A stretch of DNA of 34,920 bases, taken from positions 1 through 34,920 of the forward strand of contig JAYEOM010000100.1 of assembly GCA_034722955.1 (NCBI GenBank), read 5' to 3'. This document shows, piece by piece, positions 4,400-28,957 of this stretch (position 1 is the stretch's first letter; every line of letters begins with the position of its first letter). Made by a program: the position numbers and the translations under genes. The notes under the pieces are model-generated. The model worked only from the letters and a program-made list of their open reading frames with translations, was not told where the DNA came from and did no database searches. This DNA is from Campylobacterota bacterium (lineage in GTDB: Bacteria; Campylobacterota; Campylobacteria; Campylobacterales; Sulfurovaceae).

Positions 4400-4969
4400 C
4401 TACGACAGTGCATCATCTATCGCTTGACAGATCGTATGCCCGATGAGTATATGCATCTCTTGGATACGAGGTGTATCATCTGAGGGGACTATGATATTGA
4501 GATCACAAGCTCGATTCATCAATCCGCCATCTCTACCACTCATACCGACCGTATGACACCCCATCTCTCTAGCCACTTCCAGTGCAGATATGATATTGGT
4601 ACTATTGCCGCTCGTAGAGATACCGATGAGCAGATCTCCAGGATTTGCCAATGCCTCCACCTGCCTATCAAATACCCTATCAAAACCATAATCATTGGAG
4701 ATTGCTGTCAGTGCTGAAGTATCTGTAGTCAGAGCAACTCCTGCCAACCCTCTGCGTTCACTCTTGTATCGACCAGTCAATTCTGCTGCGATATGTTGTG
4801 CATCCGCAGCAGAGCCACCATTGCCACAGAGGAGGATCTTGTTTCCGCTTTGCAGTCTCTCTATGACTATCTTGGAGGCTCTCTCTACATCTGGAATCAA
4901 CTGCAAGATAACAGCATCTATGGTTGCCCTGTGTGCTTCAAACTCCTCTCTGATCATATCTCTGATCAT
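4400..4969 (-). CDS. gmhA: D-sedoheptulose 7-phosphate isomerase
   Basis: [33 protein letters not shown]. Confidence 0.97.
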
Positions 4970-6405
4970 TTGATCTCCTTTGACTCTCTACCTATCTTCT
5001 CTATGATAGAGCTGGTACTTTTACCCTCTACAAAATGGATCAACTGCACCTCTCCTGCCAAGTCACTCCCTACCACCTCTTTGCCTTTATAGTCAGCACC
5101 TTTGACGAGAGTATCGGGCATGATCTTTTCGATCAGCTGATATGGAGTATCTTCGCCAAATGGTATGAGATAATCCACACTCTCTAGTGCCGCTAGCAGA
5201 TAGGCACGATCCTCTAGTATGTTGACTGGACGGCTCTCTCCCTTGAGTCGTCTCACACTCTCATCACTATTGAGTCCTACGATGAGGATATCGCCTAGTG
5301 CTTTGGCTTTTTGGAGATAGCTGGCATGTCCTCTGTGTAAAATATCGAAACAGCCATTGGTGAAGATAACTTTTCGTCCTTGAGTTTTGAGTCGTTTGGC
5401 AATTCGTTCTATCTGAATAAAATCTTTGATCTTACTCTCTATCTCTCCTTTGTTGAGAGAGTGTTCATACTCCTCTATCTCGTCGAGTGTTGCTGTGGCA
5501 GAGCCTACTTTGGCGACGACTATCGCAGCGGCTTTATTGGCAAAGTGGCAAGCCTCTACGATATCCATGCCAGTAGAGAGTGCTACGCCTAGTGAAGCTA
5601 GTACAGTATCTCCTGCACCAGTCACATCATATACCTCTCTAGCAACAGTGGGGATGATATCCATATCTTGGTCAAATATAGCTATACCATCTTCACTGAG
5701 AGTAATGATACCATACTCAAGAGAGAGTTCATCTTTGAGCTTGAAGCCTGCATCTTTCAGCGTAACTTTATCTATGATATCTATACTGGAGGCTTGTGAT
5801 GCCTCCTTTTTGTTGGGAGTGAGCAGTGTCGCTCCTCTGTACTTGCTGTAGTCATCCCCTTTGGGATCCACAAGTACCGGTTTATTATGTAGATTGGCAA
5901 GGGCGATAATACTCTGAGTCAATGAAGCTGTCAAGAGACCTTTGCCATAGTCGGAGAGTAGTATCGCATCGTAGGTCTCTATATGCTCTTGGAGTGTAGA
6001 TAGCAGTGACTCTTGAGATAGGAGTGAAATATCTGTACGATTCTCATCATCAAAACGAATAATCTGCTGATTTGAAGCGATCACACGACTCTTTTTAGTA
6101 GTGACTCGACCACTCTCCTCTATCACCTCTGTAAAGTTGGCACCATCCTCCTCCAGTAGTCTCTTTGCAAGCAGAGCACTCTCATCAGAACCCAATACGG
6201 TATAGACACTGACACTGCTATGAAGGGAGATGAGATTGCGGATGACATTCCCTGCACCACCTAGCAGGCTACTCTCTTTGGATACCTCTATGACTTGTAC
6301 CGGTGCTTCAGGTGATATCCGTTCACACTTTCCCCAGATATAGTGATCTATCATAAGATCACCTATGACAGCTATAGATAGAGGGTTTTTGCGGATTCTA
6401 TCCAT
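4966..6405 (-). CDS. hldE: Bifunctional heptose 7-phosphate kinase / heptose 1-phosphate adenylyltransferase
   Basis: PfkB-type domain ([21 protein letters not shown]) plus a cytidylyltransferase-like domain ([19 protein letters not shown]). Start reassigned to ATG 6405 (MDRIRK, 479 aa) because the track's extension to 6573 overlaps hldD. Confidence 0.96.
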
Positions 6406-7441
6406 TTGAGACCTCTGTATGATAGATGCGTTTGATCTCAGGCAGATAAGCTTTGATCCCATCTTCCAGCTCAAAACGGGGTTGATAACCCAAGATTTTG
6501 ATAGATTGAGTGATATCTGCCTCTGTATGAAATTGGTAGTGTCCGATATATGGGTTTGGGATATAGTCAGCATCTCTGCTTATGCCCATTTGATCTTGGA
6601 GTATGTTGCATATATCTTGGAAAGAGCGTGCTCTTCCTGTGCCTACATTATAGATACCGCTCTCTAGTGGCTTCATCGCTTTGATATTGGCTTGGATCAC
6701 ATCTTCGATATAGATAAAGTCACGCAAAATCTTATCTGACCCTTTGAAGAGTTTGGGTGTTTCTCCTGCCAAGATCTGATGTCCAAACTGTATGACTGTG
6801 GAGGCAGTTTTATTTTTGAAGTACTCTCGTTCGCCATAGACATTGAAGTAGCGAAGTCCAACAATCGAAATCCCATCCTCCTCTCTCATGTACTCTCTAG
6901 CTATATTGTCCATCATCAGTTTAGAGAAACCATAAGCATTATTGGGAGCCTCCTCTCCGACTCTTTGAGGACTAGGTGCATCTCCATAGGTGGCGGCAGA
7001 GGAGGCATAAACTACATTTGCCTGATGAGAGCGTGCCAAATCCAGTAAGTTCTTAAAAGCATTTACATTGCTCTTTATCATAAGATCCTGTTCAAGTACA
7101 GTTGTGTCGGAGATAGCTGCTTCGTGAAAGATGTAGCTGAAACTATACTCCTCTTTCAGCTTATCTAAAGCGTCAGGGTCATTGATATCTCCACTGATAA
7201 CCTCTCCTTGGAAACCTATCAGGTTTTTGAAGTGCCCAAAGCTCTTGAGGTTGCCGTTGGAGAAGGTCTCTCCTGAACGAAATGCATCAAAAACTACTAT
7301 TTTGCACTCAGGATGATTCTCTTGAAAATAGAAAGCTAAATTGGAACCGATGAAGCCGGCTCCGCCTGTGATCAGTATGGTTTTATCATTGAAGTTCTCG
7401 TTGGTATATTTCATAAATGTATCAAACTTTTTGTTTTTCAT
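6398..7441 (-). CDS. hldD: ADP-L-glycero-D-manno-heptose 6-epimerase
   Basis: ITGGAGFIGSN, YASSAATYG, YGFSK, LRYFNVYG, RDFIYIEDV, YQFHTEAD, within the heptose operon. Alternative start ATG at 7414. Confidence 0.94.
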   Translation of the reverse strand: MKNKKFDTFMKYTNENFNDKTILITGGAGFIGSNLAFYFQENHPECKIVVFDAFRSGETFSNGNLKSFGHFKNLIGFQGEVISGDINDPDALDKLKEEYSFSYIFHEAAISDTTVLEQDLMIKSNVNAFKNLLDLARSHQANVVYASSAATYGDAPSPQRVGEEAPNNAYGFSKLMMDNIAREYMREEDGISIVGLRYFNVYGEREYFKNKTASTVIQFGHQILAGETPKLFKGSDKILRDFIYIEDVIQANIKAMKPLESGIYNVGTGRARSFQDICNILQDQMGISRDADYIPNPYIGHYQFHTEADITQSIKILGYQPRFELEDGIKAYLPEIKRIYHTEVSNG

Positions 7442-7962
7442 ATTTTACCTTGATTGTCTTGAAAGTAGCTCTTGCACTCTCCTAGTGATGCAAATGAGAG
7501 TGTAGCTTCAGCTATATCTCTCCCTATATAGATACTATTGGCGATGCCTGCATTGTCAGCCAACTCTATATCGCTCACCTTGTCCCCTATCATCCAAGAG
7601 TGGTGCAGGTCTATGGGATAACTCTCTGTCGCCTGCTCTATCATACCAATCTCAGGCTTCCTGCAGTGACATCCAGTCTTGGGCGTATGAGGGCAGTAGA
7701 AGACCTCCTCTATCGTGATGGCTTGTTTTTTGAGTTCGGAAACCATCCATTTGGTCAGTATCTCAAAATCTATTTGACTATAATACCCACGACCTATACC
7801 TGACTGATTTGTCACTACAAATAGTCTATATCCAGCATCTCGAAACTGACGGAGGATCGCTATGATCCCTTCTGAAAACTCAAAATCCTCTATTTTGGAG
7901 ACATAGCCATGATCTACATTGATGATGCCGTCTCTATCTAAAAATAGTGCTTTATGCAACAA
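7438..7962 (-). CDS. gmhB: D,D-heptose 1,7-bisphosphate phosphatase
   Basis: HAD motif FLDRDG, TNQSGIGRG, Zn-binding CPH...CHCRKP, IGDKVSD. TTG start. Confidence 0.95.
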   Translation of the reverse strand: MLHKALFLDRDGIINVDHGYVSKIEDFEFSEGIIAILRQFRDAGYRLFVVTNQSGIGRGYYSQIDFEILTKWMVSELKKQAITIEEVFYCPHTPKTGCHCRKPEIGMIEQATESYPIDLHHSWMIGDKVSDIELADNAGIANSIYIGRDIAEATLSFASLGECKSYFQDNQGKI

Positions 7963-7964
7963 CT

Positions 7965-9131
7965 CTAATCACTTCCAAATAGATCTCTTGTATAGACTTT
8001 ATCTTTGACATCGAGAATATCATCAGAGAGTCTATTGGCAACTATCACATCAGAGATACTCTTGAACTCCTCTAGGTCACTTATGACTCTTGAGTGGAAA
8101 AACTCATCTTTATGCAACTCTGGTTCATAGACTACAACCTCTATACCTTTGGCTTTTATCCGTTTCATAATCCCCTGTATGGAGGAGGCTCGGAAGTTAT
8201 CTGATCCACTCTTCATAATGAGCCTATAGATGCCTACTAATTTTGGATCTCTATCGGTGATACTCTTGGCTATAAAGTCTTTGCGTGTTCTATTTGACTC
8301 TACAATAGCACTGATCATATTGTTGGGCACATTTTCATAGTTTGCTCTGAGCTGCTTGGTATCTTTGGGCAGACAGTATCCGCCATATCCAAAAGAGGGG
8401 TTGTTGTAGTGAGTCCCGATCCTAGGATCTAATCCTACACCCTCTATGATCTGTCTCGTACTGAGTCCATGTGCCTGTGCATAACTATCTAGCTCATTAA
8501 AGTAGGCAACCCGCATCGCTAGATAAGTATTAGAGAAGAGCTTGACTGCTTCAGCTTCAGTAGAATCCGTATAGAGGATATCAATATCTTTTTTGACTGC
8601 ACCATCTGCTAAAAGATTTGCAAATATCTCTGCCCTCTGGCTTATCTCTCCAACGATGATACGCGATGGGTGCAAGTTGTCATAGAGAGCCTTCCCCTCT
8701 CGTAAAAATTCCGGTGAAAAGATGATATTTTGGCAATTAAGCTCTCGGCTTATCTGCTTGGTGTATCCTACAGGTACTGTAGACTTGATCACCATGGTGG
8801 CCTTAGGATTGATAGCGATGACATCTTTGATGACAGACTTGACAGAAGAGGTATCAAAGTAATTTGTCTCAGGATCATAATCAGTCGGTGTTGCGATGAT
8901 GACAAAATCTGCATTACTGTAAGCTTCTATCTTCTCTAGGGTTGCTTTAAAATCAAGTGATTTGTTGTTTAGAAACTCTCTAATCTCTCGATCTTCGATA
9001 GGTGAGATTTTTCGGTTAAGCATCTCTACTTTCTCTTCAACAACATCTAATGCGATAACTTCATTGTTCTGAGCCAAAAGGATACCGTTAGACAAACCAA
9101 CATATCCTGTACCGGCAATTGCAATCTTCAT
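7965..9131 (-). CDS. ugd: UDP-glucose 6-dehydrogenase
   Basis: [26 protein letters not shown], catalytic [13 protein letters not shown]. Confidence 0.96.
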
Positions 9132-9163
9132 CTTAAATTTCCTTCTGCCTGCTTGTTTGGTCG

Positions 9164-9169
9164 ATTATA
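9164..9169 (-). promoter_or_regulatory. -10 box (TATAAT) for ugd-gmhB-hldD-hldE-gmhA
   Basis: Plus-strand ATTATA at 9164-9169, about 33 nt upstream of the ugd ATG. Confidence 0.5.
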
Positions 9170-9255
9170 CTAAAAGCACAATGAACTGGCACTGAAAATC
9201 TATCTCTTATCAATGATTCTATAATTTATAAATAGACTTCTGCTTGATTTTCCAG

Positions 9256-11139
9256 TTAATCGAGCTCAAACTCTTCTCTCCAGTTGCCTTTGTCCTCAAA
9301 GTCCGGCTGCTCCTCTTTGTATAAGATAAAGTTGTCAATAACCAAAAGATCCATTTCTGTTCGCATAAAACAACGATAGCTATCTTCGGGTGTACATACT
9401 ATAGGTTCGCCTCTTACATTAAATGAAGTGTTTACTATAGTAGCACAACCCGTCTTCTCTTCAAATTTGGATATGAGTTTGTGATATCTTGGATTGGTCT
9501 CTCTATGTACCGTTTGGACTCTTGCACTATAATCGATATGTGTTACTGCCGGTATCTCGCTTCTTGGGATATTGAGCTTCTCTATACCAAAGAGCTTCTC
9601 CTGCTCTTTGGTCATCTTGATCTGCTTGGACTCTTTGATGGGTGCAACTAGCAGCATATATGGACTAGGTCTCTCCAGCTCATACCAATCATTGACTCTC
9701 TCGAATAGTACAGAGGGGGCAAATGGTCTGAAACTCTCTCTATATTTTATCTTTAGGTTCATAGTGGATTGCATCTCTTGGCTTCTAGGATCACCTAAAA
9801 TACTCCTGTGTCCTAGTGATCGCGGACCAAACTCCATCCTATCATAGTGCCACCCTACTACTCTACCGGAAGCCAGTTGGCTACTGACTCTATCTACCAG
9901 CTCATCTTCACTATCTATATAGCTGTAGTTTGCATCAACACTCTCTAGATAACTCTCTATCTCATCATCAGAGAATTTGGGTCCTAGATAAGCCCCCTGC
10001 ATCTTATCAAACTCATCTGGGTTGATAGTGCGGGTATGGTCAAGCTCTTGATAGTAGACACTATATGCACCACCCAAAGCACCGCCTGCATCACCTGCTG
10101 CAGGCTGTATCCATATACTCTCAAAGATATTTTCTCTCAGCAGCTCTCCATTGGCTACACAGTTGAGTGCAACACCACCTGCCAAACAGAGATTGCTGCT
10201 GCCTGTTACCTCTTTGGCGTGGCGAGCTAGCTTGATCATAATCTCTTCGGTGATCGCTTGTATGGAGGCGGCTAAATCCATCTCTCTTTGTGTGAGTACA
10301 CCCTCACTCTCTCTAGGAGGAGCTCCAAAAAGCCGATGAAACTTTTCACTTGTCATAGTCAGACCGGCGGTGTAGTTGAAGTAGCTCATATCGAGCTTGA
10401 AAGAGCCATCATCTTTGATATCTATAAGATGCTCTTTGATAGTGTCTACATATATAGGTTCACCATAGGGAGCTAGCCCCATTACTTTATACTCTCCACT
10501 GTTGACTTTGAACCCTGTATAGTAGGTAAATGCTGAATATAGCAATCCCAACGAGTGAGGAAAATCGATCTCTTTTAGGAACTCTATCTTGTTACCTTTT
10601 CCGTAGGCTAGTGAAGTGGTAGACCACTCACCCACACCATCTATGGTTAAGATAGCGGCCTCTTCGTATGGTGATGGATAGAAGGCACTCCCTGCGTGGC
10701 TCTGATGGTGCTCTCCAAACATAAACTTATCCTGGATCACTTGTTTAAAAGCTTTTGCCTCTCTCTCTTGGCTGGGGTTGAGCTCCAAGAAGAGCTCTTT
10801 GAACTCTCTAGATAGTGTCTCTTTGAGGAAAAGCTTATCTTTCAGCCAGATGGGTATAGAGAGCAGAAAAGATGAGAATCCTCTAGGTGCCTCAGCCAGA
10901 TAAGTCTCTAGCAGGCGTTCAAACTTTATGAATGGTTTATCATAAAAGGTGATATAGTCGATCTGTTCGAGGGAGATATTTGCCTCTTTGAGACAATATT
11001 TTATAGACTCTTTTGGAAAGCTATCATCCTGTTTTTTACGACTAAATCTCTCCTCTTGTACTGCAGCTACGATCACTTCATCTCTGATAAGCGCTACACC
11101 GGAGTCGTGGTAGTAGGCTGATATCCCTAAAATATACAT
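9256..11139 (-). CDS. O-carbamoyltransferase, NodU/CmcH/TobZ family (SxtI-like)
   Basis: ILGISAYYHDS, EERFSR, metal-binding EHHQSHA, DGVGE, GEYKVMGLAPYG, LAGGVALNC, GDAG, EFGPRSLG, RESFRPFAP, NTSFN. ATG 11139 is preceded by AGGA; TTG 11148 is an alternative start. Confidence 0.95.
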   Translation of the reverse strand: MYILGISAYYHDSGVALIRDEVIVAAVQEERFSRKKQDDSFPKESIKYCLKEANISLEQIDYITFYDKPFIKFERLLETYLAEAPRGFSSFLLSIPIWLKDKLFLKETLSREFKELFLELNPSQEREAKAFKQVIQDKFMFGEHHQSHAGSAFYPSPYEEAAILTIDGVGEWSTTSLAYGKGNKIEFLKEIDFPHSLGLLYSAFTYYTGFKVNSGEYKVMGLAPYGEPIYVDTIKEHLIDIKDDGSFKLDMSYFNYTAGLTMTSEKFHRLFGAPPRESEGVLTQREMDLAASIQAITEEIMIKLARHAKEVTGSSNLCLAGGVALNCVANGELLRENIFESIWIQPAAGDAGGALGGAYSVYYQELDHTRTINPDEFDKMQGAYLGPKFSDDEIESYLESVDANYSYIDSEDELVDRVSSQLASGRVVGWHYDRMEFGPRSLGHRSILGDPRSQEMQSTMNLKIKYRESFRPFAPSVLFERVNDWYELERPSPYMLLVAPIKESKQIKMTKEQEKLFGIEKLNIPRSEIPAVTHIDYSARVQTVHRETNPRYHKLISKFEEKTGCATIVNTSFNVRGEPIVCTPEDSYRCFMRTEMDLLVIDNFILYKEEQPDFEDKGNWREEFELD

Positions 11140-11150
11140 ACTTTTCAATC

Positions 11151-11300
11151 CTAAAACAGTGTGTAGATGAAAGGGGCAACTGCACTACCCTCAGCCAAGA
11201 CGATCAATGCACCAAGGAGGAGCATGATGAGGATAATAGGAAGCAGCCAAAACTTCTTTCTAACTCTCATAAAGGTCCATAACTCTTTTAAAAATGACAT
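11151..11300 (-). CDS. 49-aa single-TM peptide, SxtK/DUF5989-like
   Basis: Below the ORF-track cutoff. My translation: MSFLKELWTFMRVRKKFWLLPIILIMLLLGALIVLAEGSAVAPFIYTLF*. AGGAG Shine-Dalgarno upstream; it fills the gap between the SxtJ-like and carbamoyltransferase genes; RKKFWL.P...APFIYTLF matches my recollection of the family. Confidence 0.9.
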   Translation of the reverse strand: MSFLKELWTFMRVRKKFWLLPIILIMLLLGALIVLAEGSAVAPFIYTLF

Positions 11301-11313
11301 TTTGATGATTCTC

Positions 11314-11694
11314 CTAAAATTGATGTTTCATTGATTGGGGTTGAGTCTCTCTATCTATCCAGTAGCTATCTTGGGATCTGTCAACTTTTTTATTGAGTAG
11401 ATCTTTTCCGAGAAGTTTCAAAAATAGAGATACAGGAGTAAAGAGTCCAAAGAAGAGGATAAACATAATGATCCTAGAGATCACTCCCCCTATTAAGGTG
11501 CCGATCTTTATCCATATCAGATAAAATCTGCTCAGTAGTTCAGGCTTCAGAAAAGCTGTAGCAACAAATGCCAAAGAGATTACAATAGCCCAATATCTAA
11601 CCCCACCATCTTTGATAAGCGGTAACACTCCTATCACGATAAATATACCTGCCCAAATAAGTGCAAATAGTTTCAAATCATATTTTTTTATCAT
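11314..11694 (-). CDS. SxtJ family membrane protein
   Basis: 126 aa with 2-3 hydrophobic segments, W..IG..IG.V.S.II...FF...TP...GKD.L...SYW...QF pattern, adjacent to the SxtK/SxtI-like genes. Confidence 0.85.
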   Translation of the reverse strand: MIKKYDLKLFALIWAGIFIVIGVLPLIKDGGVRYWAIVISLAFVATAFLKPELLSRFYLIWIKIGTLIGGVISRIIMFILFFGLFTPVSLFLKLLGKDLLNKKVDRSQDSYWIDRETQPQSMKHQF

Positions 11695-11841
11695 ATATCT
11701 ATTTAATCCTTCTATTTTTATCTACTTATAATATCAATTTTTAAGTTAAGAGTATATGAATCTACTCTATCTTAAATGATTTGAGAGCCATAGCTAACTA
11801 TCTAGGGGCATCATAGTAAAATCTTATCTTTTCACTTAGAT

Positions 11842-12804
11842 CTACTTCTCATTTTCATCTATAAATTTGCCTATCGCTTCAGACCCTATGATACTCCCTT
11901 GATCATTTAGGTGTGATCGGTCTGCAAAATATTTATCATCTAAATGAAGCTCTTCATGTAGACTAAAAAACAGACCACCATTTTCCGCCATGATCTTTTT
12001 GATTCTCTCTGGAAATGTTATCATAAGATTTTGGATATGCTTATGTTGGTCGATAAGTGCCTGCCTGTATGGCTGCTGAACAAAATAAAATTTTATACCC
12101 TTCTCATGAGCTTTTTTGGTCATTCTAGCAACAGCTGGAAAAGCTCTCTTCTCTTGATGTGAACCATGAGGTGCTGCCCACCGCTTGTGAATAATATCTT
12201 TTCCATAGATATGCAGCGGCACACTACCTGTATGGTCAAATCCAAGATATGTAAATTTATTATTCATAGCATGTTTTTTACCCCACTCAAGCTCTCTCTT
12301 GATACAGAAGATGAGGTTTTTGCAAGAATCGAACATAAGATTAAAGTACTCAATAGGGTTCAACTCATGTCTGATATATTTTTTGATAAACTCAGGGTCA
12401 TAATCTTTGAATTTTGATGGATATGGAAAGTCAGAAAATTGTGCTGAGTAGATGATTCGTTTTAGATTTGGAAAAGCATCTGTCAACTCAAGCAACTGCT
12501 CTACCTGAAAGGCACTAGCTTCATAGACAGATAGATTCAAGACACTATTGCATTTTTTGGATCCCTTCTCTAGATAAGCACCCTGGATATTGTTCAAACC
12601 AATAGATGAGCCTACAATGATAGTATCTACCGAATCAACATCTATATTTTCGCGGATAAATTTGATCTTGGCATCAAAAGAGATACGATTGGTGACAGGT
12701 ATGGGGTAGTTTTTGTAAAAATAGTAAGCATAAGTATAAGCCGATGCAAAAATAATCGCATATACTATAAAGAGTCTCTTGAGATAAGTTTTATACTTCT
12801 GCAT
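11842..12804 (-). CDS. Membrane-anchored SGNH-like protein (AlgJ/PatB/DltD-like acyl transferase candidate)
   Basis: N-terminal TM anchor, block-I-like IIVGSS, C-terminal D-x-x-H (FADRSHLN), directly downstream of an MBOAT gene. Confidence 0.7.
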   Translation of the reverse strand: MQKYKTYLKRLFIVYAIIFASAYTYAYYFYKNYPIPVTNRISFDAKIKFIRENIDVDSVDTIIVGSSIGLNNIQGAYLEKGSKKCNSVLNLSVYEASAFQVEQLLELTDAFPNLKRIIYSAQFSDFPYPSKFKDYDPEFIKKYIRHELNPIEYFNLMFDSCKNLIFCIKRELEWGKKHAMNNKFTYLGFDHTGSVPLHIYGKDIIHKRWAAPHGSHQEKRAFPAVARMTKKAHEKGIKFYFVQQPYRQALIDQHKHIQNLMITFPERIKKIMAENGGLFFSLHEELHLDDKYFADRSHLNDQGSIIGSEAIGKFIDENEK

Positions 12805-12815
12805 AGATGATTCTC

Positions 12816-14270
12816 CTAAAAATTGAAATAGATAAATTCACTCTTTCTATAGAGAATGAAGATCGATAGAGAGAAGAGAAGAGTAAGAGAGAGATAGAGT
12901 AGCGTAGGCTTGAACTCTCTCCTCATCTGCATAGAGTTTTTCAAAAATAAGACAATGATAAATCCACCTATAAGCCACAATCCCAAATAGGTATCTTGCT
13001 GAAACAGTTTTGACCAGTTTCCAAATGTCAAGCTTGACTCTTTGAGAAACTCAAGATGTTCTGATAGATAGTTAGGCAGTATAAGTGCTCCCTTGAACAT
13101 CCCATGGAGTACTTTGATAGCAGAGTCAAAATCCTTGGCTCTAAAGAAGACCCAAGCGATATTGATAAAATTGAATGTAATAAACCATCCAAGAATTGCA
13201 GGCATCTTCACTCCTAGCTTTTGCCATACTCTGTGTATCACTATGGCAACTCCATGCAGAGCACCCCATACGACAAAGGTCCACCCTGCACCATGCCAAA
13301 TACCGCCTAGCAGAAAAGTAGCAAAAAGATTGGTATAAGTTCTAAACTCTCCTTTCCGGTTGCCCCCTAGAGGGATATATAGATACTCTTTTAAGAATCT
13401 AGAGAGAGTGATATGCCATCTACGCCAAAAATCCTGTATAGAGGTAGCCTTATATGGAGAGTAGAAGTTTATAGGGAGTTTGATGTTAAATAGCAGTGCT
13501 GCCCCTATCGCCATATCTGTATATCCACTGAAGTCAAAATAGAGTTGAAAAGTGTAGCTTAGCGAAGTAGCCCAAGCTTCAAGCATATTTAGCTCACTAG
13601 AGAGATCAAAACCTCTGCTTGCCCAGATGGCAAAAGTATCTGCAATGACTGCTTTTTTAAACAAGCCCATAGAGAAGATAAAGATCCCAAGTGCGATATG
13701 ATAATAGTTTTTAACCTTATTTTTGACTTTTGCAAATTGGGGCATCATCTCGGCATGGTGGACGATGGGACCTGCGATCAGCTGAGGAAAAAAGGTGACA
13801 AACAGAGCATAGTTTAGAAAATCATACTCTTTAGTCTCTTTGCGGTAACTATCTACTAGATAGGCGATCTGTTGAAAAGTAAAAAAACTTATCGCCAAAG
13901 GTAGTGCCAAATTCAATAGCTCTATATCCGCTTTGAGTATCTTGTCGATATTTGTGATAAAGAAATCTGCGTACTTGAAGTAACCAAGCAGAGACAGATT
14001 GAATACTACGCCAATAGCAAGCAGGTGCTTTCTATTGTAGTATCTCCTATCTATAGACTTTGAGAGCTCTTTTCCTATGCTGTAGTTGACCAGCATAGAG
14101 AGAAGTATAAGTGGCAGATACGAGATATTCCACCAGCTGTAAAAGAAGAGTGAAGCAAGTACCAAAAATGCTTTACTAGCTTCCGTCAGACGCTTTTTGT
14201 TGAGGTAAAAATAGATAAAAAATGTAACGGGTAAAAAAAGGAATATAAAGATATATGAATTAAATAACAA
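12816..14270 (-). CDS. MBOAT O-acyltransferase (AlgI/PatA/DltB family)
   Basis: LFNS, LPLAISFFTFQ, FFPQLIAGPI, DFSGYTDMAIG, FWRRWHITLS, catalytic GIWHGA, C-terminal EFIYFNF. Likely start TTG 14270 after GAGGA (the track uses ATG 14291). Confidence 0.95.
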   Translation of the reverse strand: MLFNSYIFIFLFLPVTFFIYFYLNKKRLTEASKAFLVLASLFFYSWWNISYLPLILLSMLVNYSIGKELSKSIDRRYYNRKHLLAIGVVFNLSLLGYFKYADFFITNIDKILKADIELLNLALPLAISFFTFQQIAYLVDSYRKETKEYDFLNYALFVTFFPQLIAGPIVHHAEMMPQFAKVKNKVKNYYHIALGIFIFSMGLFKKAVIADTFAIWASRGFDLSSELNMLEAWATSLSYTFQLYFDFSGYTDMAIGAALLFNIKLPINFYSPYKATSIQDFWRRWHITLSRFLKEYLYIPLGGNRKGEFRTYTNLFATFLLGGIWHGAGWTFVVWGALHGVAIVIHRVWQKLGVKMPAILGWFITFNFINIAWVFFRAKDFDSAIKVLHGMFKGALILPNYLSEHLEFLKESSLTFGNWSKLFQQDTYLGLWLIGGFIIVLFLKNSMQMRREFKPTLLYLSLTLLFSLSIFILYRKSEFIYFNF

Positions 14271-14429
14271 GTAGATTTCCTCTCTGAACATATCGACTGA
14301 TGTCTGTTTTTATAAAAACAATAATATATCTTAAAGTCACTTAAAGAATAGATTATGAGAAAAGAGGGTATACTTACGCTTTAATTTTTCTTAATAATAC
14401 TTAATTAATGAGATAACAAAGGGGTATCT

Positions 14430-15278
14430 GTGAAAAATAGGATCATAAATTTAACTATCAAAATAGTCTCTTTCTCGCTTTTTATTGGCTTCTCCATCGC
14501 AACTGCAGAAGAGGTGCGGATCATGCCGTTGGGAGACTCTATAACTTATGGTAACAGTGAAGCTGACCTAGTAGACCCTAGACCTACAAGCATGCGAGAG
14601 GCATACAGGAGTCATCTCTATTACAAACTAAGGGATGTTGCATATGATGGCAACTTTGTCGGCTCAGAGATAGCAGGTCAAGGTGTATCGCCATCCTTTG
14701 ACCCTGACAATGAGGGTCATCCAGGTTGGCATAGTCATAGATTTGCAGACCACACCTATAATTTTCTAAACAACAACCCAGCAGATATCATACTACTGCA
14801 TATCGGCACAAATGATCATATCAAAAATGCAGGCGGTGTAGAGCTGGTACTGGATCAGATCGACTATTTTGAAGTACAAAACGAGCAACCCGTTACCGTT
14901 ATACTGGCATTGATTATCAATAGAGAAGAGCATGACCCTATAGTATCCGATTTCAACAAAGATTTGACTAGAGTAGCAAAAAGTCGCATCAAAGAGGGAG
15001 ATGATATCATCATTGTCGATATGGAACATGATGCAGGCTTGACTACTGGGGATTATGCTGATAATACACACCCAAATAGCAGTGGATACAATAAGATGGC
15101 AAATATTTGGTTTGATGCCATAATAAGCCTCGATGGTAAACCAGCTGACAACAAAGCCCTGCGTGACTATCCATATACTATAATAGACAAATCATATATT
15201 AACTATATCTATGTAAATAGTGAGAGTTCGTATGTTACATTTGAGACAGAAATCCCTGATAGCGGCATTGCATTTTAA
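14430..15278 (+). CDS. Exported SGNH/GDSL hydrolase (carbohydrate esterase-like)
   Basis: Signal peptide (…SIATA|EE), IMPLGDSIT, GHPGW, HIGTND, DNTHPN. Confidence 0.85.
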   Translation: MKNRIINLTIKIVSFSLFIGFSIATAEEVRIMPLGDSITYGNSEADLVDPRPTSMREAYRSHLYYKLRDVAYDGNFVGSEIAGQGVSPSFDPDNEGHPGWHSHRFADHTYNFLNNNPADIILLHIGTNDHIKNAGGVELVLDQIDYFEVQNEQPVTVILALIINREEHDPIVSDFNKDLTRVAKSRIKEGDDIIIVDMEHDAGLTTGDYADNTHPNSSGYNKMANIWFDAIISLDGKPADNKALRDYPYTIIDKSYINYIYVNSESSYVTFETEIPDSGIAF

Positions 15279-15287
15279 GGAGCCATA

Positions 15288-15605
15288 ATGAAAAAAACTA
15301 TAACATTGATAACGCTTTTGATCTCTCTTGTTGGATGCGGAGGCGGCTCTAGTTCCAGCTCTGGCACAATCACACCTATCGACCCTGTTGAGCCTGTTGA
15401 GCCTGTTGATCCTGTTGATCCGGATGATCCTAAAAATCCAAAAACTATATCTATGACGACAAATGAAGTATACCAAGTATTTCCGGGTGACAAGATAGAG
15501 AAGAGATCGGAAGGGACAAGAGTAAAAATCGCCTATTTTGAGAACAAGACTGCATCAGGGGTAGAGTTGATTGAGGGAAGTGCAGAGATTATTCGTTCAG
15601 AATAA
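15288..15605 (+). CDS. Small lipoprotein with Ser/Gly and Pro-Val-Asp/Glu linker
   Basis: AAGGAG SD, MKK plus hydrophobic stretch plus lipobox LVGC, then GGGSSSSS and (PxE/D)n. Confidence 0.8.
   Translation: MKKTITLITLLISLVGCGGGSSSSSGTITPIDPVEPVEPVDPVDPDDPKNPKTISMTTNEVYQVFPGDKIEKRSEGTRVKIAYFENKTASGVELIEGSAEIIRSE
15375..15431 (+). repeat. 9-bp coding tandem repeat CCTGTTGA(G/T), about 6 degenerate units
   Basis: CCTATCGAC CCTGTTGAG CCTGTTGAG CCTGTTGAT CCTGTTGAT CCGGATGAT CCT, encoding PIDPVEPVEPVDPVDPDDP. Confidence 0.9.
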
Positions 15606-15615
15606 GGAGCAGATA

Positions 15616-16407
15616 TTGTTTGACTTCATCAAATCTATATGGCAGAGCAGGAGACTTCTTTGGAAGTTAACAAAAAATGATTTCAAACAGAAGTATCTTG
15701 GGAATTTTTTAGGAATTTTTTGGGCATTTATTCAGCCAACAGCTACTATCATCGTCTTTTGGTTCGTTTTTCAAGTAGGATTCAAATCACAGCCTGTTGA
15801 TAATTTCCCATTTATTCTATGGCTTGTCGCAGGGATGTTTCCTTGGTTCTATTTTGCGGATGGACTCTCCAATGGAACCAATAGTGTTTTGGAAAATAGT
15901 TTTCTTGTCAAAAAGATTCTATTTAGAGTCAGTCTACTACCTATTATCAAACTCCTCTCGGCACTTGCGATTCATATCTTTTTTATATTTTTTATGTTTG
16001 CTATGTTTATATACTATGGATACTCACCTCAAATCTATTGGCTGCAGATCATCTATTATCTTTTTGCTCTTTCACTGCTCCTGCTTGGTATTACCTGGAT
16101 CACCTCATCAGTTGTAGTCTTCTTTCGTGATATGGGACAACTAGTCTCTATTATAATTCAGTTTGGATTTTGGCTTACACCTATCTTTTGGTCTATGAAG
16201 ATCGTACCTGAGAAGTACCATTTTATCATCCAGCTCAATCCTCTTGTATATATCATAGAGGGTTATCGAAACAGTATGATATATCACCATTGGTTCTGGG
16301 AAGATCTGGAGATGACACTCTACTACTGGGCTGTTACTGCCACTGTTTTTGCCATTGGCGGATTGACATTTTCCAAGCTTAGACCACATTTTTCGGATGT
16401 ATTATGA
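15616..16407 (+). CDS. wzm: ABC-2 polysaccharide export permease
   Basis: DFKQKYLG..LG.FWAFIQP, FRD..Q, FWLTPIFW, LNP..YIIEGYR, F.DVL. Start reassigned to TTG 15616 behind AAGGAG. Confidence 0.92.
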   Translation: MFDFIKSIWQSRRLLWKLTKNDFKQKYLGNFLGIFWAFIQPTATIIVFWFVFQVGFKSQPVDNFPFILWLVAGMFPWFYFADGLSNGTNSVLENSFLVKKILFRVSLLPIIKLLSALAIHIFFIFFMFAMFIYYGYSPQIYWLQIIYYLFALSLLLLGITWITSSVVVFFRDMGQLVSIIIQFGFWLTPIFWSMKIVPEKYHFIIQLNPLVYIIEGYRNSMIYHHWFWEDLEMTLYYWAVTATVFAIGGLTFSKLRPHFSDVL

Positions 16408-17687
16408 TAGATCGAGAGATATCAATACGCGTCAATAAGTTGACAAAAATTTATCACCTCTATGATAACCCTCAAGATCGCTTCAAAGAGGCACTCAATC
16501 CATTTAGAAAATCTTACCATCATGACTATTATGCTATGAGCAGTGTAAATTTTGATATCTATAGAGGCGAAACAGTAGGTATCATTGGCAAAAATGGAGC
16601 AGGCAAATCAACTCTGCTAAAGATGATAACTGGTGTTTTGACTCCTACGAGTGGCAGTGTAGAGACCAAAGGGAGAATCGCATCACTCCTAGAGCTGGGT
16701 GCTGGATTCAATCCTGAGATGACAGGTTTGGAAAATATCTATCTCAATGGTACACTTATGGGCTTTAGTGACAGAGATATGGATAGTAAGATATCAGCGA
16801 TACTGGATTTTGCTGATATTGGAGAGTTCATACATCAACCTGTCAAGATGTATAGCTCTGGTATGTTTGCAAGACTTGCTTTCTCTGTCTCCATCAATGT
16901 CGATCCTGATATATTGATCATAGATGAAGCATTGAGTGTTGGTGATATGGCTTTTCAAATGAAATGTTTCAAGAAATTTCAAGAGTTTCAAGAGCAGAAC
17001 AAAACGATACTCTTTGTAACCCATGCACTAGATACAGTTATACGATACTGCACGAGAGGTATTGTGATAGATGCAGGCAAAATGATCTGTGATGATAGTG
17101 CCAAGGAGGCAGTAGATATCTTCAAGCAGGTACTAACTGGGCATTTTGTATCTGCCGGTTTGACACCACAAGATCAAGATTTGACACCATCTTCTCTAGA
17201 GAGTGATACTCTACTGAAAGATAGTTTTCCCCCCAATAAAGAGATGCTTGAGTATGGTAACAATAAAGCAGATATTTATGACTACGGCATGGTAGATAAG
17301 GTAGGCAAACCCAGTGTTGTATTTGATTATGATCAGCTCTGCGATATTGTGATGAAAGTTCGATTTAATGAGACTATAGACTCTCCTATATTTGCATTTA
17401 CTATCAAAGATGCCAAAGGCTTGGAGATCACCGGTACCAATAGTATCATGAAACATATGATGACATCTCTCTATAAACCAAATGAGGAGACAACTGTAAA
17501 GTTCACTCAAAAGATAAATCTACAGCCTGGCAAATATGCACTCTCTATAGGGTGTGTAGGTATCTCTGAAGAGGGTGTAGAGGTCTATATGCGACTCTAT
17601 GATGCGATACTGTTTGAAGTGATTGGCACTCAACAGATGGTTGGATTTTTCGATCTAAAAAGTGATATCAGTATAGATGAAGCGTGA
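16404..17687 (+). CDS. wzt: ABC polysaccharide export ATPase with C-terminal Wzt_C carbohydrate-binding domain
   Basis: Walker A GKNGAGKST, signature YSSGM, IIDEALSVGD, and a ~170-aa beta-rich C-terminal extension (YGNNKA…FAFTIKD..G.EITGTN). Confidence 0.93.
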   Translation: MIDREISIRVNKLTKIYHLYDNPQDRFKEALNPFRKSYHHDYYAMSSVNFDIYRGETVGIIGKNGAGKSTLLKMITGVLTPTSGSVETKGRIASLLELGAGFNPEMTGLENIYLNGTLMGFSDRDMDSKISAILDFADIGEFIHQPVKMYSSGMFARLAFSVSINVDPDILIIDEALSVGDMAFQMKCFKKFQEFQEQNKTILFVTHALDTVIRYCTRGIVIDAGKMICDDSAKEAVDIFKQVLTGHFVSAGLTPQDQDLTPSSLESDTLLKDSFPPNKEMLEYGNNKADIYDYGMVDKVGKPSVVFDYDQLCDIVMKVRFNETIDSPIFAFTIKDAKGLEITGTNSIMKHMMTSLYKPNEETTVKFTQKINLQPGKYALSIGCVGISEEGVEVYMRLYDAILFEVIGTQQMVGFFDLKSDISIDEA

Positions 17688-19218
17688 ATACTACTTCTAC
17701 CTTCTACTATTTGTCACTGTAGCAGGTCTCTTTTTTACCTATCCATTTACGAGATACCCTTATGATATATGGGAGCATCTCTTCACTATGGACAGTGAGT
17801 ATATCAATCTGCTCCATATGCCTGAGAGCAGGAAGAGTTGGCACCACTTCTGGACTCTTTTTTTTGACTTTTTTGGTGTAGAAAACAGTCAGATCCTCCT
17901 AAGAGCGAAAATCATCCATACCATACAGACTCTAGTGAGCTTTTTTGCTCTTTTTTTCTTTAGCAGGGTAATGATACGCATACTCTTTAGATCAGCAGAT
18001 AGATTGGCTATCAACTATATGGCATACTGGTCAACTATACTCTGGTTCACTATTTTTGCAACTTTTTCAGTCCATTATCATCAAATGTGGATCATGTGGT
18101 ACTCAGTCAACTATCAAATATCACTTCCTCTTTTTTGGTATAGCTTGGCGTTGATATTGATAGTACTATTTGATAAACCATCACCAAAGATCAACTCTCT
18201 CTATCTGCTTCAAATAGTGATAATTACTCTTTTGATATTACGGATACACCCTATGGAGATACTCTATTTGATGATGCATCTCTTTGTGCTACTCCTTGTT
18301 TTTGGAGACAAGGTTTGGTTCTCTATCAAAAAAAATTATTATATTTGGATACCTCTATTTATAGTGATAGCTGTCACTATAAAAGCATACTATCAAGATC
18401 AGTTGCCTCTCATCATAGGTTATCTTCATATAGATAGGCTGCCCCAGCTCTATCAGCTGATCATACACAATGGAGAGCTACTGGAGAAGACAGGTAACAA
18501 TCGTGCCTTCTCATCCTTTAATGAGTTGATGATTTTGACACTGTTGATGGGAAGTGTCACTGCACTTATCCTCCTCTATCATCACTATAGAGATCGTAGT
18601 GACACTATAGATAGACAGCTATTTATATTTCTCATCTTGACTTCACTTTTTGTGCTGATACCTATATTTACCTTTAGTTCGGGAGTAGCTTCTGTTATCG
18701 CCAAAATATCTGTAGTCAACCGTTTTTACTATAGTGCTTCGATATTCATACTCTTTCCTGTCTCTATCTACTACCTCTTCTCTCTCTATTCCAAAGAGGT
18801 AAATCTTCGCTACTTTAACGCTACAGTAGTAGTGATACTCTTAGGTACCACTCTCTACTCTAGGGATTATACTCTTTCACAAAATTATTATAAAAATATC
18901 AAATCACTTGAGTCTAGTTTTTTTCAAGAGAGGGTTGGGTTTCATCTCACACAAGATCACATAGATAGGATTGGTACTGAACTTAAAACCTATGAGAGTA
19001 GACGCGATCATAACAAAACAGCACTCTATCTAGCTAGAGGAGATATCGCGATGGTACTTAGATACATCTATCGCCAAAATGTCTACTGGAGAGGACGAAA
19101 AACCAATCCTACCTACCCTCAGATGGAAGCTTATATTGAGACTAGATTGCCGACAGGAAGAGAGGGTATTATCTTTATGACACCCAAAGGCTTTCCCGAT
19201 TATGAACCATATCGCTAG
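17677..19218 (+). CDS. Polytopic membrane protein of unknown function (GT-C glycosyltransferase candidate)
   Basis: 513 aa, about 11-12 hydrophobic segments, a loop after TM1 with YPYDIWEH, soluble C-terminal tail; overlaps the wzt stop. Confidence 0.5.
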   Translation: MKREYYFYLLLFVTVAGLFFTYPFTRYPYDIWEHLFTMDSEYINLLHMPESRKSWHHFWTLFFDFFGVENSQILLRAKIIHTIQTLVSFFALFFFSRVMIRILFRSADRLAINYMAYWSTILWFTIFATFSVHYHQMWIMWYSVNYQISLPLFWYSLALILIVLFDKPSPKINSLYLLQIVIITLLILRIHPMEILYLMMHLFVLLLVFGDKVWFSIKKNYYIWIPLFIVIAVTIKAYYQDQLPLIIGYLHIDRLPQLYQLIIHNGELLEKTGNNRAFSSFNELMILTLLMGSVTALILLYHHYRDRSDTIDRQLFIFLILTSLFVLIPIFTFSSGVASVIAKISVVNRFYYSASIFILFPVSIYYLFSLYSKEVNLRYFNATVVVILLGTTLYSRDYTLSQNYYKNIKSLESSFFQERVGFHLTQDHIDRIGTELKTYESRRDHNKTALYLARGDIAMVLRYIYRQNVYWRGRKTNPTYPQMEAYIETRLPTGREGIIFMTPKGFPDYEPYR

Positions 19219-24242: not shown

Positions 24243-24250
24243 CTTATACT

Positions 24251-26274: not shown

Positions 26275-26384
26275 CGGCATAGGATTTTTTAAAAATCGCA
26301 AAAAAAGAAATTTGGAAGTTTTAAAAGTTGTTTTTTGAGGTTCCCTGTATATTTCATCAAAAATTATACATAAGAGAGAATCAT

Positions 26385-27254: not shown

Positions 27255-27661
27255 TGTTAGCCATCAAATACACCATCTTCGCAGTGATCTCTACACTCTT
27301 CAACCTATTGTTCCAATATTTTAGCTTTGGACTCTATGAGGGGCTTGGATCACTCTATGTTGCTATGCTCTTTGGAACACTGGCAGGACTGATAGCCAAA
27401 TATATTTTGGATAAGAAGTTTATCTTCTATCATACCCCTAAAGATAAAAAAGATGATGCCAAGAAGTTTGCACTCTATTCACTGATGGGTCTCTTCACTA
27501 CCATCATCTTCTGGGGGACAGAGATAGCATTTGATACTCTCTCCCAAGATCCCAATGCCAAATACCTGGGTGCTGTGGTCGGCTTAAGTATCGGCTATGT
27601 CATCAAATACTTTTTAGATAAGAGGTTTGTATTTATCCACAAGGAGGAAGTAGCACTATGA
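27254..27661 (+). CDS. GtrA-family lipid-linked sugar flippase
   Basis: About 135 aa with 4 TM and duplicated KY.LDK.F.F; TAATG coupling to the upstream gene gives ATG 27254. Confidence 0.85.
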   Translation: MLAIKYTIFAVISTLFNLLFQYFSFGLYEGLGSLYVAMLFGTLAGLIAKYILDKKFIFYHTPKDKKDDAKKFALYSLMGLFTTIIFWGTEIAFDTLSQDPNAKYLGAVVGLSIGYVIKYFLDKRFVFIHKEEVAL

Positions 27662-28956: not shown

Positions 28957-28957
28957 T

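Follow-up and report, generated by a model that had tools for sequence, protein, structure and literature searches.

Two adjacent, probably envelope-decorating modules in a Campylobacterota surface-glycan locus, one of them with a candidate tyrosine-shuttle peptide

Do five neighboring genes that combine an MBOAT, an SGNH-fold protein and a NodU/TobZ-type carbamoyltransferase form one carbamoylation relay across the membrane, or more than one system? The genes lie in a 34,920-nucleotide stretch of DNA from a Campylobacterota bacterium, the whole of which is here called the window. A preliminary description of the cluster, made from the letters alone, had read it as a single relay spanning positions 9256 to 14270. 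All five ORFs are present on the minus strand and the genes are as described, but at its MBOAT end that span stops 21 bases inside the gene, whose first ATG is at 14291. The surface-glycan setting was also borne out, as the window encodes a Wzm/Wzt ABC exporter (15571-17687, plus strand; ABC2_membrane, E 2.4e-15; ABC_tran plus Wzt_C, E 7.4e-34), glycosyltransferases, and heptose and UDP-glucose dehydrogenase genes. We found that the five genes are two adjacent modules, not one, both probably envelope-decorating.

The first module comprises the MBOAT (12816-14291, minus strand, 491 aa; PF03062, E 2.6e-42) and its partner, a membrane-anchored, DltD-like SGNH-fold protein (11842-12804, minus strand, 320 aa). 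The MBOAT is of the AlgI/PatA type, with a fused C-terminal F-I-Y-F-N-F tail and a WRRWHITLS stretch that presumably corresponds to the MBOAT histidine motif; DltB was excluded as its identity, since it scored far under the cut-off of model TIGR04091 (146 versus 375 bits). Six of six other MBOATs (L023, L038, L072, L113, L114 and L115) terminate in F-[IL]-Y-F-x-F. The SGNH protein gave no Pfam match above threshold, and DltD was weakly indicated (E 0.012). Its AlphaFold model (pLDDT 89.3, N-terminal helix at residues 2-32) best matched DltD in Foldseek (6pfx, E 1.6e-5) and also matched PatB (7tjb, E 2.6e-3); 28 relatives all keep G65-S66-S67 and D295/H298 unchanged. A gene of this type adjoins an MBOAT in three of four other loci, and the pair is present in three related genomes that lack the peptide of the second module. 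Judged from sequence and model, the two proteins are a self-contained PatA/PatB-type O-acylation pair, sharing with PatA/PatB and AlgI/AlgJ the fused tail (here FIYFNF), the TM-anchored SGNH-fold partner and the glycan locus. The MBOAT would load an acyl group, probably acetyl, onto its tail tyrosine, from which the SGNH protein would hand it on to an exported glycan.

The second module is a trio consisting of an SxtJ-like small polytopic membrane protein (11314-11694, minus strand, 126 aa; PF19588, 28.6 bits versus a cut-off of 24.4), a DUF5989/SxtK-like microprotein (11151-11300, minus strand, 49 aa; PF19451, E 3.5e-27) and the carbamoyltransferase (9256-11148, minus strand; Carbam_trans_N, E 8e-103; Carbam_trans_C, E 1.6e-72). 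DUF5989 is equated here with SxtK by size and position. Of 80 loci from many phyla, 76 have a carbamoyltransferase beside the peptide and 70 have an SxtJ relative there. An MBOAT lies within 10 kb of the peptide in 3 of these 80 loci (L023, L038 and L072) and in 0 of 13 loci of a further set. If all five genes acted as one system, carbamoyl would pass through the MBOAT either to the peptide or to the MBOAT's own tail, for delivery by the neighboring SGNH protein. The adjacency and shared orientation of the genes in the window, together with the three MBOAT-bearing loci, speak for such a system, but 77 of the 80 loci and all 13 of the further set lack an MBOAT near the peptide, the MBOAT-SGNH pair recurs peptide-free, the MBOAT has a complete shuttle tail of its own, and the gap between the SGNH gene and sxtJ is 147 bases versus 2-13 bases between genes within each module. 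We consider a five-gene system very unlikely, and neither the single relay of the preliminary description nor its alternative of a relay through the MBOAT is supported.

What, then, does the trio do? The peptide matches the DUF5989 profile over its full length (94.7 bits, cut-off 27; positions 1-49 of 49) and consists of an N-terminal basic amphipathic helix, a single TM helix and a C-terminal tail, F44-I-Y46-T-L-F49. Its only hydrophobic stretch is W18-A37, with five basic residues ahead of the TM helix and zero behind it. By the positive-inside rule this arrangement fits a periplasmic C-terminus, as does the co-fold described below, in which the N-terminal helix is predicted to rest on the cytoplasmic carbamoyltransferase.

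The resemblance between the ends of the peptide (PFIYTLF) and the MBOAT (EFIYFNF), which had first suggested a shuttle, proved to be family-wide on both sides. We collected 5585 relatives of the peptide. All 120 of the closest terminate in [FL]-x-Y-T-[LI]-F. Among 150 further representatives, PFIY is kept in every one and the motif is terminal in 121; the remaining 29 read through past the motif with unconserved sequence, and in 6 the last one or two motif residues are altered. The tyrosine, whose conservation the preliminary description had proposed to check, is kept in 270 of 270 DUF5989 relatives, and [FLM]-x-Y-x-x-F stands at the extreme C-terminus, as in DltX and PatA, in 241 (a few begin with L or M). 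Identity across phyla is 67-88%, and G38, S39, A42, P43, F44, I45, Y46, T47 and F49 are invariant among 18 diverse members. Because the hexapeptide is a family trait in both the peptide and the MBOAT families, its sharing is, on sequence grounds, not chance. FXYXXF is the acyl-shuttle motif of DltX and PatA in PMC12148441, and the peptide tail FIYTLF resembles the PatA tail FIYANF given there. No homology of the peptide to DltX was detected: hmmscan against Pfam-A at E values up to 10 returned DUF5989 alone, and a profile search of PDB chains gave no DltX match.

Co-folding of the trio yielded an ipSAE of 0.68 (runs of 0.67, 0.69 and 0.68), whereas the best control reached 0.01. Among solved complexes the ipSAE mark is attained in 116 of 157 cases, and among mismatched pairs in 2 of 215; this calibration is only rough here because the co-fold used custom alignments. 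The runs had at least 94% of contacts in common, with partner pLDDT of at least 72. In the model, the peptide interface extends over residues 3-37, of which residues 3-16 lie on the cytoplasmic enzyme; SxtJ contacts the peptide through residues 65-88 and 120-126, and enzyme segment 73-107 is predicted against the TM helices of the peptide (19-37) and of SxtJ (65-88). The co-fold supports a predicted membrane complex of SxtJ, peptide and carbamoyltransferase. It agrees with the earlier suggestion that SxtJ docks the enzyme at the membrane, the predicted docking surface being SxtJ plus the peptide. On the companion question of whether the tyrosine enters the enzyme, the co-fold gave no such support, as peptide residues 38-49, which include the tyrosine tail, made no confident contact. 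The presumably periplasmic tail is the most conserved part of the peptide, yet it lacks a confident partner in the trio model.

The AF2 model of SxtJ (pLDDT 87.8) has helices at residues 4-27, 34-49 and 51-94, and the protein closes with a conserved cytoplasmic tail that ends M-K-x-Q-F. Its invariant positions are F10, W61, G65, P87 and D98; by our reading of the helix boundaries, most of these sit where a helix meets the cytoplasm or past the last helix. The conservation includes no invariant histidine and no other obvious catalytic residue. A Foldseek search with the model gave no fold match. Small flippases such as GtrA and ArnE/F are about the size of SxtJ, and a lipid carrier could in principle link the two faces of the membrane: the enzyme would carbamoylate a polyprenyl phosphate-like carrier, SxtJ would flip it, and the peptide and SGNH protein would use it in the periplasm. 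Such a scheme draws on the co-fold, in which enzyme segment 73-107 packs at or in the membrane within a stretch unlike the soluble relatives, and on the high conservation of the enzyme, which suits a universal acceptor. We judge it improbable, as SxtJ matches only its own family in Pfam and shows no likeness to any flippase in sequence (Pfam) or fold (Foldseek), and that we know of no such carbamoylated carrier lipid also counts against it.

The carbamoyltransferase is 59-76% identical to trio partners in other phyla. It passes the cut-offs for both Carbam_trans domains and scores 134 bits on the NodU equivalog model, whose cut-off is 1000. Its true start is likely the ATG at 11139, as indicated by relatives that begin MYILGIS. 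Searches showed that it shares the two-domain make-up of the soluble NovN, GdmN and TobZ (E 5e-90 to 2e-71), a likeness that extends to NodU. Chemistry of the TobZ/NodU type runs via carbamoyl-AMP, and TobZ, NovN and GdmN put the carbamoyl group directly on the final substrate. These soluble enzymes need no membrane partners. In the window enzyme, residues ~84-140 form a longer, conserved segment that is unaligned with NovN, GdmN and TobZ and includes the predicted contact with peptide and SxtJ.

The preliminary description had proposed measuring the co-occurrence of the trio with SGNH genes, and the association was found. With our own profile, membrane-anchored SGNH genes with intact catalytic residues occur within 2.5 kb of the trio in 39 of 93 other loci (40 of 94 with the window included as seed); the profile was seeded from peptide-adjacent genes and is therefore biased toward near matches. 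It matched 47 of 265 near ORFs versus 7 of 577 far ORFs. Lipase_GDSL_2 from Pfam is the top family of the near ORFs (13/74 and 8/74, or 21 of 148) and falls outside the 25 commonest families of 125 far ORFs, hence at most 2 of 125. In the alignment of the 39 trio-linked SGNH proteins, the G-x-S serine is present in 39 and the block V histidine in 38. The insertion point of the gene varies (J-K-CT-SGNH, CT-J-K-SGNH, CT-SGNH-J-K, J-SGNH-K-CT, J-K-SGNH-CT and others), and trio and SGNH genes occur in at least seven orders in several phyla. Two loci (L038 and L081) have the peptide beside an SGNH gene with no carbamoyltransferase within 10 kb. The trio-linked SGNH proteins are too divergent for most Pfam cut-offs, and a conserved enzyme and peptide beside divergent SGNH partners fits a fixed loading step that may feed variable end enzymes. 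No SGNH gene was found within 2.5 kb in the other 54 of 93 loci, some of which are on short contigs.

These features are consistent with a carbamoyl-tyrosine relay that the trio loads and SGNH transferases receive, a reading to which we give somewhat less than an even chance. As both the co-fold and the gene linkage support, the soluble carbamoyltransferase would sit on the cytoplasmic face, held by the basic and TM helices of the peptide, the TM helices of SxtJ and the SxtJ C-terminal tail. Tyr46, four residues from a presumably periplasmic C-terminus, would take the carbamoyl group made from carbamoyl phosphate and ATP, making the peptide the carbamoyl counterpart of DltX. From the resulting aryl carbamate, O-carbamoyl-tyrosine, the group would pass to the catalytic serine of a membrane-anchored SGNH enzyme, and that enzyme would place it on a hydroxyl of the glycan being exported. 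The SGNH type found with the trio elsewhere is missing from the window, so the trio would have to borrow either the neighboring DltD-like protein or the secreted GDSL protein encoded divergently (14430-15278, plus strand; signal-peptide-like N-terminus; Lipase_GDSL, E 3.9e-9; Lipase_GDSL_2, E 7.4e-8), which is possibly an esterase or an acceptor-side enzyme for the trio. By phmmer, neither of these two proteins has detectable similarity to the trio-linked SGNH genes of other loci. We know of no established or predicted route from a cytoplasmic carbamoyl group to a periplasmic tyrosine, which counts against the relay. Also against it are the tail's lack of a confident contact in the co-fold, the small size of SxtJ and its lack of an obvious catalytic residue, the 54 loci without a nearby SGNH gene, the direct action of TobZ, NovN and GdmN on their substrates, and the failure to detect DltX homology.

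A membrane anchor for the cytoplasmic enzyme is nearly as likely as the relay, though doubtful in its own right. SxtJ and the peptide would tether, and perhaps activate, the enzyme at the inner face of the membrane, where it would carbamoylate an undecaprenyl-linked glycan directly before export or, in other hosts, another membrane-near molecule; SGNH neighbors would either trim the modification as esterases in the periplasm or be O-acyltransferases unrelated to it. The confident interface indeed draws only on the peptide's cytoplasmic and TM helices and on SxtJ's cytoplasmic tail, and the solved relatives act on their substrates directly. The Wzm/Wzt pathway finishes its polymer in the cytoplasm before exporting it, and this logic and the 54 loci without a nearby SGNH gene point the same way. 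Ape1, encoded beside patA/patB, is a known esterase, and the same role would suit an SGNH gene of the operon just as well. SxtL is proposed as an esterase (decarbamoylase; PMC2679770). Left unexplained by an anchor are the highly invariant, presumably periplasmic tail that copies the exact acyl-shuttle motif, the two loci with peptide and SGNH gene without a nearby enzyme, and the 59-76% cross-phylum identity in an enzyme for variable glycans.

Returning to the carbamoyl-tyrosine relay, a close parallel is the DltX-DltB-DltD system (with DltA/DltC) of teichoic-acid D-alanylation, which likewise combines a one-TM microprotein of ~50 aa ending in F-x-Y-x-x-F and a cytoplasmic ATP-dependent activating enzyme; it also has a membrane-anchored SGNH-fold partner, for which many trio loci encode a candidate. 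The trio differs in that its group would be carbamoyl rather than D-alanyl and no carrier protein is involved, most trio loci have the small SxtJ in place of an MBOAT, no sequence homology of the peptide to the DltX family was detected, and an SGNH partner lies beside only ~40% of trio loci. DltX is partnered by an MBOAT without its own tail, whereas MBOATs near the peptide are rare and all four, the window's included, carry one. In PatA/PatB and AlgI/AlgJ the motif is fused to the MBOAT, unlike the free peptide of the trio, and in the part of PMC12148441 available, MBOAT/SGNH pathways besides Dlt are without such a free peptide. PMC12148441 also describes an acyl-tyrosine intermediate passed to an extra-membrane SGNH domain in OatA-type AT3-SGNH proteins. 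These differ in being single fused proteins whose membrane domain is AT3 and whose donor is acetyl-CoA.

More tentatively than for the trio itself, DUF5989/SxtK peptides may represent a second family of tyrosine shuttles, free-standing and very large, with MBOAT-independent carbamoyl loading by SxtJ and a dedicated carbamoyltransferase and transfer to varied SGNH enzymes. We found no paper linking peptide, carbamoyltransferase and SGNH enzymes in such a relay. If true, exported glycans would be O-carbamoylated outside the cytoplasm via carbamoyl-tyrosine and then carbamoyl-serine, and the sxt pathway would possibly end there as well. The cyanobacterial saxitoxin genes resemble the trio loci in having a carbamoyltransferase (SxtI), SxtJ (PF19588), a DUF5989-matching microprotein (SxtK by size and position) and an adjacent GDSL gene of similar size (SxtL), and differ in that the acceptor is a small alkaloid there and presumably a glycan here. 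No mechanism is assigned to SxtJ or SxtK in the available parts of PMC2885083, PMC2679770 and PMC12300590. sxtI, J, K and L measure 1839, 405, 165 and 1281 bp and have consecutive accession numbers (PMC2679770), and the same sxt-like order, CT-J-K-SGNH, is also found among the trio loci.

Five co-oriented genes on the minus strand of the window encode an MBOAT protein (12816-14291; Pfam E 2.6e-42), a 320-aa DltD-like SGNH protein (11842-12804; an ORF with a weak DltD match, E 0.012), SxtJ (11314-11694; Pfam 28.6 bits, cut-off 24.4), a 49-aa SxtK-like DUF5989 peptide (11151-11300; full-length Pfam match, E 3.5e-27) and a carbamoyltransferase in which Pfam recognizes both carbamoyltransferase domains (9256-11148). 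The peptide ends in PFIYTLF and the MBOAT in EFIYFNF. ORFs, Pfam matches and tail sequences bear out the gene run and the common C-terminal motif of the preliminary description. Intergenic spacing is 2-13 bases within each half of the run and widens to 147 bases between the SGNH gene and sxtJ; a promoter and terminator scan of 9000-14600 returned fewer sites than shuffled sequences did and is thus uninformative on transcription units. The 320-aa protein gave a confident AlphaFold model (pLDDT 89.3) with an N-terminal helix at residues 2-32. Its top fold match was DltD (6pfx, E 1.6e-5), PatB was also matched (7tjb, E 2.6e-3), and G65-S66-S67 and D295/H298 are invariant across 28 aligned relatives. 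Glycan genes surround the five ORFs: a heptose-precursor set (SIS, HldE-like, HAD and epimerase), UDP-glucose dehydrogenase, Wzm/Wzt with a Wzt_C domain, a methyltransferase, glycosyltransferases, two AT3 acyltransferases and, divergent from the run as its neighbor in the glycan locus, a secreted GDSL protein (14430-15278, plus strand).

We searched the surroundings of 80 peptide genes, taken from named genomes in many different phyla, by tblastn with the window proteins. The carbamoyltransferase was present at 76 loci, SxtJ at 70 and MBOAT at 3; the two SGNH proteins of the window (DltD-like and GDSL) were found near the peptide at none of the 80. Within the window's phylum, a peptide above the family cut-off is present in 14 of 401 genomes. 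The 13 Campylobacterota peptide loci outside the window have SxtJ (13/13) and the enzyme (11/13), with MBOAT or the window's SGNH proteins at 0/13. Three other genomes of the 401 have the DltD-like protein, at four loci in total. At three of these loci its neighbor is an MBOAT with 62-73% identity to the one in the window and with a C-terminal F-[IL]-Y-F-N-F. All three genomes fall outside the set in which the peptide was matched at the family cut-off. Because the MBOAT-SGNH pair recurs without the peptide, and the trio of SxtJ, peptide and carbamoyltransferase occurs elsewhere mostly without MBOAT, the pair is a separate module. It is self-sufficient, of the PatA/PatB type, and a chance neighbor of the trio here. 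On the same distribution (3/80 and 0/13 loci; pair recurring without the peptide), we rejected a place for the MBOAT in the carbamoyl path. Despite the co-orientation and the shared motif, a single five-gene system is therefore highly improbable; what stands of that interpretation is the linkage of the trio, its predicted assembly at the membrane and the enrichment of SGNH genes nearby, both described below.

Some peptide genes lie apart from the enzyme gene. At two loci, the peptide adjoins SGNH genes and the enzyme is missing within 10 kb; L038, one of the two, has an MBOAT as well. The genomes of both carry the enzyme elsewhere. The genome of L038 (G401) has three peptide gene copies (C12:93642, C16:555192 and C16:443127): only one adjoins a carbamoyltransferase, another lies beside an MBOAT and a pair of SGNH genes, and the third has no recognizable partner. 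Three further peptide loci (one being the site of locus L064 itself), in genomes with the enzyme elsewhere, have no recognizable partner nearby.

The 49-aa ORF is a genuine gene; at E up to 0.001 it has 5585 relatives. The best 120 of these are 82-100% identical, and all 120 end in [AT]-P-F-[IVL]-Y-T-[LI]-F; the few with a source label are assigned to Campylobacterota and to Alpha-, Beta- and Gammaproteobacteria. A library of representatives at 50% identity yielded 3613 matches at E up to 0.001. Among the best 150 of these, the hexapeptide is terminal in 121, and the remaining 29 keep PFIY followed by an unconserved extension, which we read as a frameshift or read-through. We call the tail invariant with reference to these 270 sequences (the best 120 and best 150 listed), weaker members lying outside the statement. 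An alignment of 18 diverse peptides has two invariant blocks, one on the N-terminal side (E6, W8, F10, R14, K15, K16, W18, L19 and P21) and one in the tail (G38, S39, A42, P43, F44, I45, Y46, T47 and F49). Longer forms are rare and comprise 52 proteins, 46 of which occur as a single sequence. Pfam identifies three as SxtJ-peptide fusions, protein P0160 is a fourth such fusion, and six or seven continue into carbamoyltransferase. We read the longer forms as rare fusions or calling errors and reject a fused peptide family. Overall, the family runs to thousands of proteins and spans many phyla, with SAR11-type Pelagibacteraceae, Nitrospira and Campylobacterota among its hosts. A viral contig (locus L135) carries one DUF5989 peptide gene at 7998-8150, full length and with APFIYTLF intact at its C-terminus; carbamoyltransferase, SxtJ and SGNH genes are all absent within 8 kb of it.

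FXYXXF is the published C-terminal motif of DltX and PatA-type MBOATs, in which the tyrosine bears the acyl group (PMC12148441). This terminal motif recurs in the peptide family, whose linked partner is a carbamoyltransferase instead of an MBOAT. Pfam at E up to 10 matched the peptide to DUF5989 only; a PDB profile search returned no DltX, its lone TM-like match being by chance (7tgg_A, E 0.78), and a protein atlas search gave no usable match.

Co-folding of the enzyme, SxtJ and the peptide gave a score of 0.68 (runs 0.67, 0.69 and 0.68), whereas the best of three controls scored 0.01. Of 157 solved complexes, 116 attained the co-fold mark, as did 2 of 215 mismatched pairs; this calibration is only rough here since we supplied the alignment of each chain ourselves. 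The runs had at least 94% of contacts in common, with partner pLDDT of at least 72. The confident interface comprises peptide residues 3-37, enzyme residues 73-107 and SxtJ residues 65-88 and 120-126; no confident contact was named for peptide residues 38-49. The C-terminus of SxtJ carries a motif conserved in alignment, M-[KR]-x-Q-F, within segment 120-126, and in the co-fold this tail contacts peptide residues 6-10. Residues ~84-140 of the window enzyme fail to align with the soluble enzymes NovN, GdmN and TobZ, whereas the remainder aligns (E 5e-90 to 2e-71). SxtJ itself was modeled with pLDDT 87.8, and its fold had no match among solved structures at E up to 0.001. Because five basic residues precede the transmembrane helix of the peptide and none follow it, the predicted orientation is N-in/C-out, which would place Tyr46 of the tail F44-I-Y46-T-L-F49 in the periplasm. 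The co-fold supports a membrane complex of the three proteins. The interface is accounted for if SxtJ and the peptide merely tether the enzyme at the inner face of the membrane; this explanation leaves the invariant periplasmic tail unexplained, and we regard it as credible and nearly as likely as the relay considered below.

At other loci, a gene for a 320-500 aa protein with an N-terminal transmembrane helix lies within or beside the trio, and many such proteins match Lipase_GDSL_2 or ALGX, often below the Pfam cut-off. We built an SGNH profile from near-peptide genes after removal of carbamoyltransferase, SxtJ, peptide and MBOAT ORFs. An SGNH gene was present within 2.5 kb of the peptide at 40 of 94 loci (window included as seed). 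The profile matched 47 of 265 near ORFs versus 7 of 577 located at least 4 kb away, a count biased toward near genes by the origin of its seeds. In a check by Pfam alone, which compared ORFs of 250-520 aa near the peptide with randomly drawn far ones, Lipase_GDSL_2 was the commonest family in near ORFs (13/74 and 8/74) and fell outside the 25 commonest families of 125 far ORFs, the last-ranked of which had two members. Gene order varies: SxtJ-peptide-enzyme-SGNH (10 loci), the same trio with a convergent SGNH gene (4), enzyme-SxtJ-peptide-SGNH (3), enzyme-SGNH-SxtJ-peptide (7, all Campylobacterota), SxtJ-SGNH-peptide-enzyme (2), SxtJ-peptide-SGNH-enzyme-SGNH (1) and enzyme-SGNH-SxtJ-SGNH-peptide (2). 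Among 39 aligned trio-linked SGNH proteins, the G-x-S serine is kept in 39, the block V histidine in 38 and the aspartate in 34. Membrane-anchored, intact SGNH genes are thus enriched near the trio. The window's own two SGNH proteins had no phmmer match to the trio-linked ones at E under 0.01. No SGNH gene is nearby at 54 of 93 loci, and loci of that kind are likewise accounted for by simple tethering of the enzyme. Many of the loci surveyed are kin, so that the counts given here do not represent independent events.

The preliminary description proposed that the peptide shuttles a carbamoyl group. The enzyme would use ATP and carbamoyl phosphate on the cytoplasmic side, Tyr46 would receive the carbamoyl group, and the tyrosine would then pass it to the SGNH serine. 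We hold this relay to be a reasonable though tentative possibility. Serine hydrolases are carbamoylated by aryl carbamates, which makes its chemistry plausible. Between phyla, the enzymes share 59-76% identity and the peptides 67-88%; SxtJ proteins share 25-54%, and the SGNH partners are barely alignable. Such a pattern would be in keeping with a loading step that is fixed and end enzymes that vary. The weak point of the relay is topology: ATP and carbamoyl phosphate are inside, the tyrosine would be outside, and no conduit was seen. A variant of the relay that employs a lipid carrier seems unlikely to us.

In the literature on sxt clusters (PMC2885083, PMC2679770, PMC12300590), SxtJ and SxtK either have no assigned function or are said to act "in conjunction with" SxtI, and SxtL is given as a putative decarbamoylase of the GDSL type. 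Outside subscription journals, we found no mention of DUF5989 in the literature, no title or abstract among those listed that was relevant to a link between carbamoyl groups and DltX and, since 2022, only Dlt and Pat work among titles and abstracts on acyl shuttles or DltX. The acyl-tyrosine shuttle has only recently been worked out, for D-alanyl and acetyl groups, and a DltX-like peptide is described as absent from pathways other than Dlt (PMC12148441). A relay of the proposed kind, if correct, would be a tyrosine shuttle in carbamoyl form: it would broaden shuttle chemistry from esters to carbamates, provide a second means of passing a group through the membrane and account for carbamoylation of exported polysaccharides after export. 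SxtJ and SxtK, whose function has been given as unknown ever since the first descriptions of sxt clusters, would then have a role open to testing. Tethering alone would still give this enzyme class a three-part membrane complex undescribed in literature outside subscription journals.

Directly downstream of the carbamoyltransferase, window positions 4400-7962 (minus strand) encode SIS/GmhA-like, HldE-like kinase-adenylyltransferase, epimerase and GmhB-like HAD proteins. Heptose is a candidate acceptor because the Pseudomonas aeruginosa core contains 7-O-carbamoyl heptose (PMC7168646). In SAR11-type Pelagibacteraceae (eight loci), the trio is not in an obvious glycan locus; its neighbors there are a thiamine-diphosphate enzyme, APS-reductase subunits and a TauE-like exporter. 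A 105-aa lipoprotein-like ORF of the window with a P-[IV]-[DE]-P repeat (15288-15605, plus strand) and a 513-aa ORF after wzt (17677-19218, plus strand) had no Pfam match at E up to 1e-5. The two AT3 (Acyl_transf_3) acyltransferases are in tandem at 23118-25279 on the plus strand (E 4.6e-34 and 7.1e-32), so that with the MBOAT the locus has three membrane O-acylation devices besides the carbamoyl trio. Consecutive genes at 26328-29689 (plus strand) encode a UbiA prenyltransferase, a GtrA-like membrane protein, an FAD_binding_4 oxidase and a short-chain dehydrogenase, a set that we take to recall the mycobacterial pathway from polyprenyl-phospho-ribose to the arabinose donor and that would be unusual for such a bacterium.
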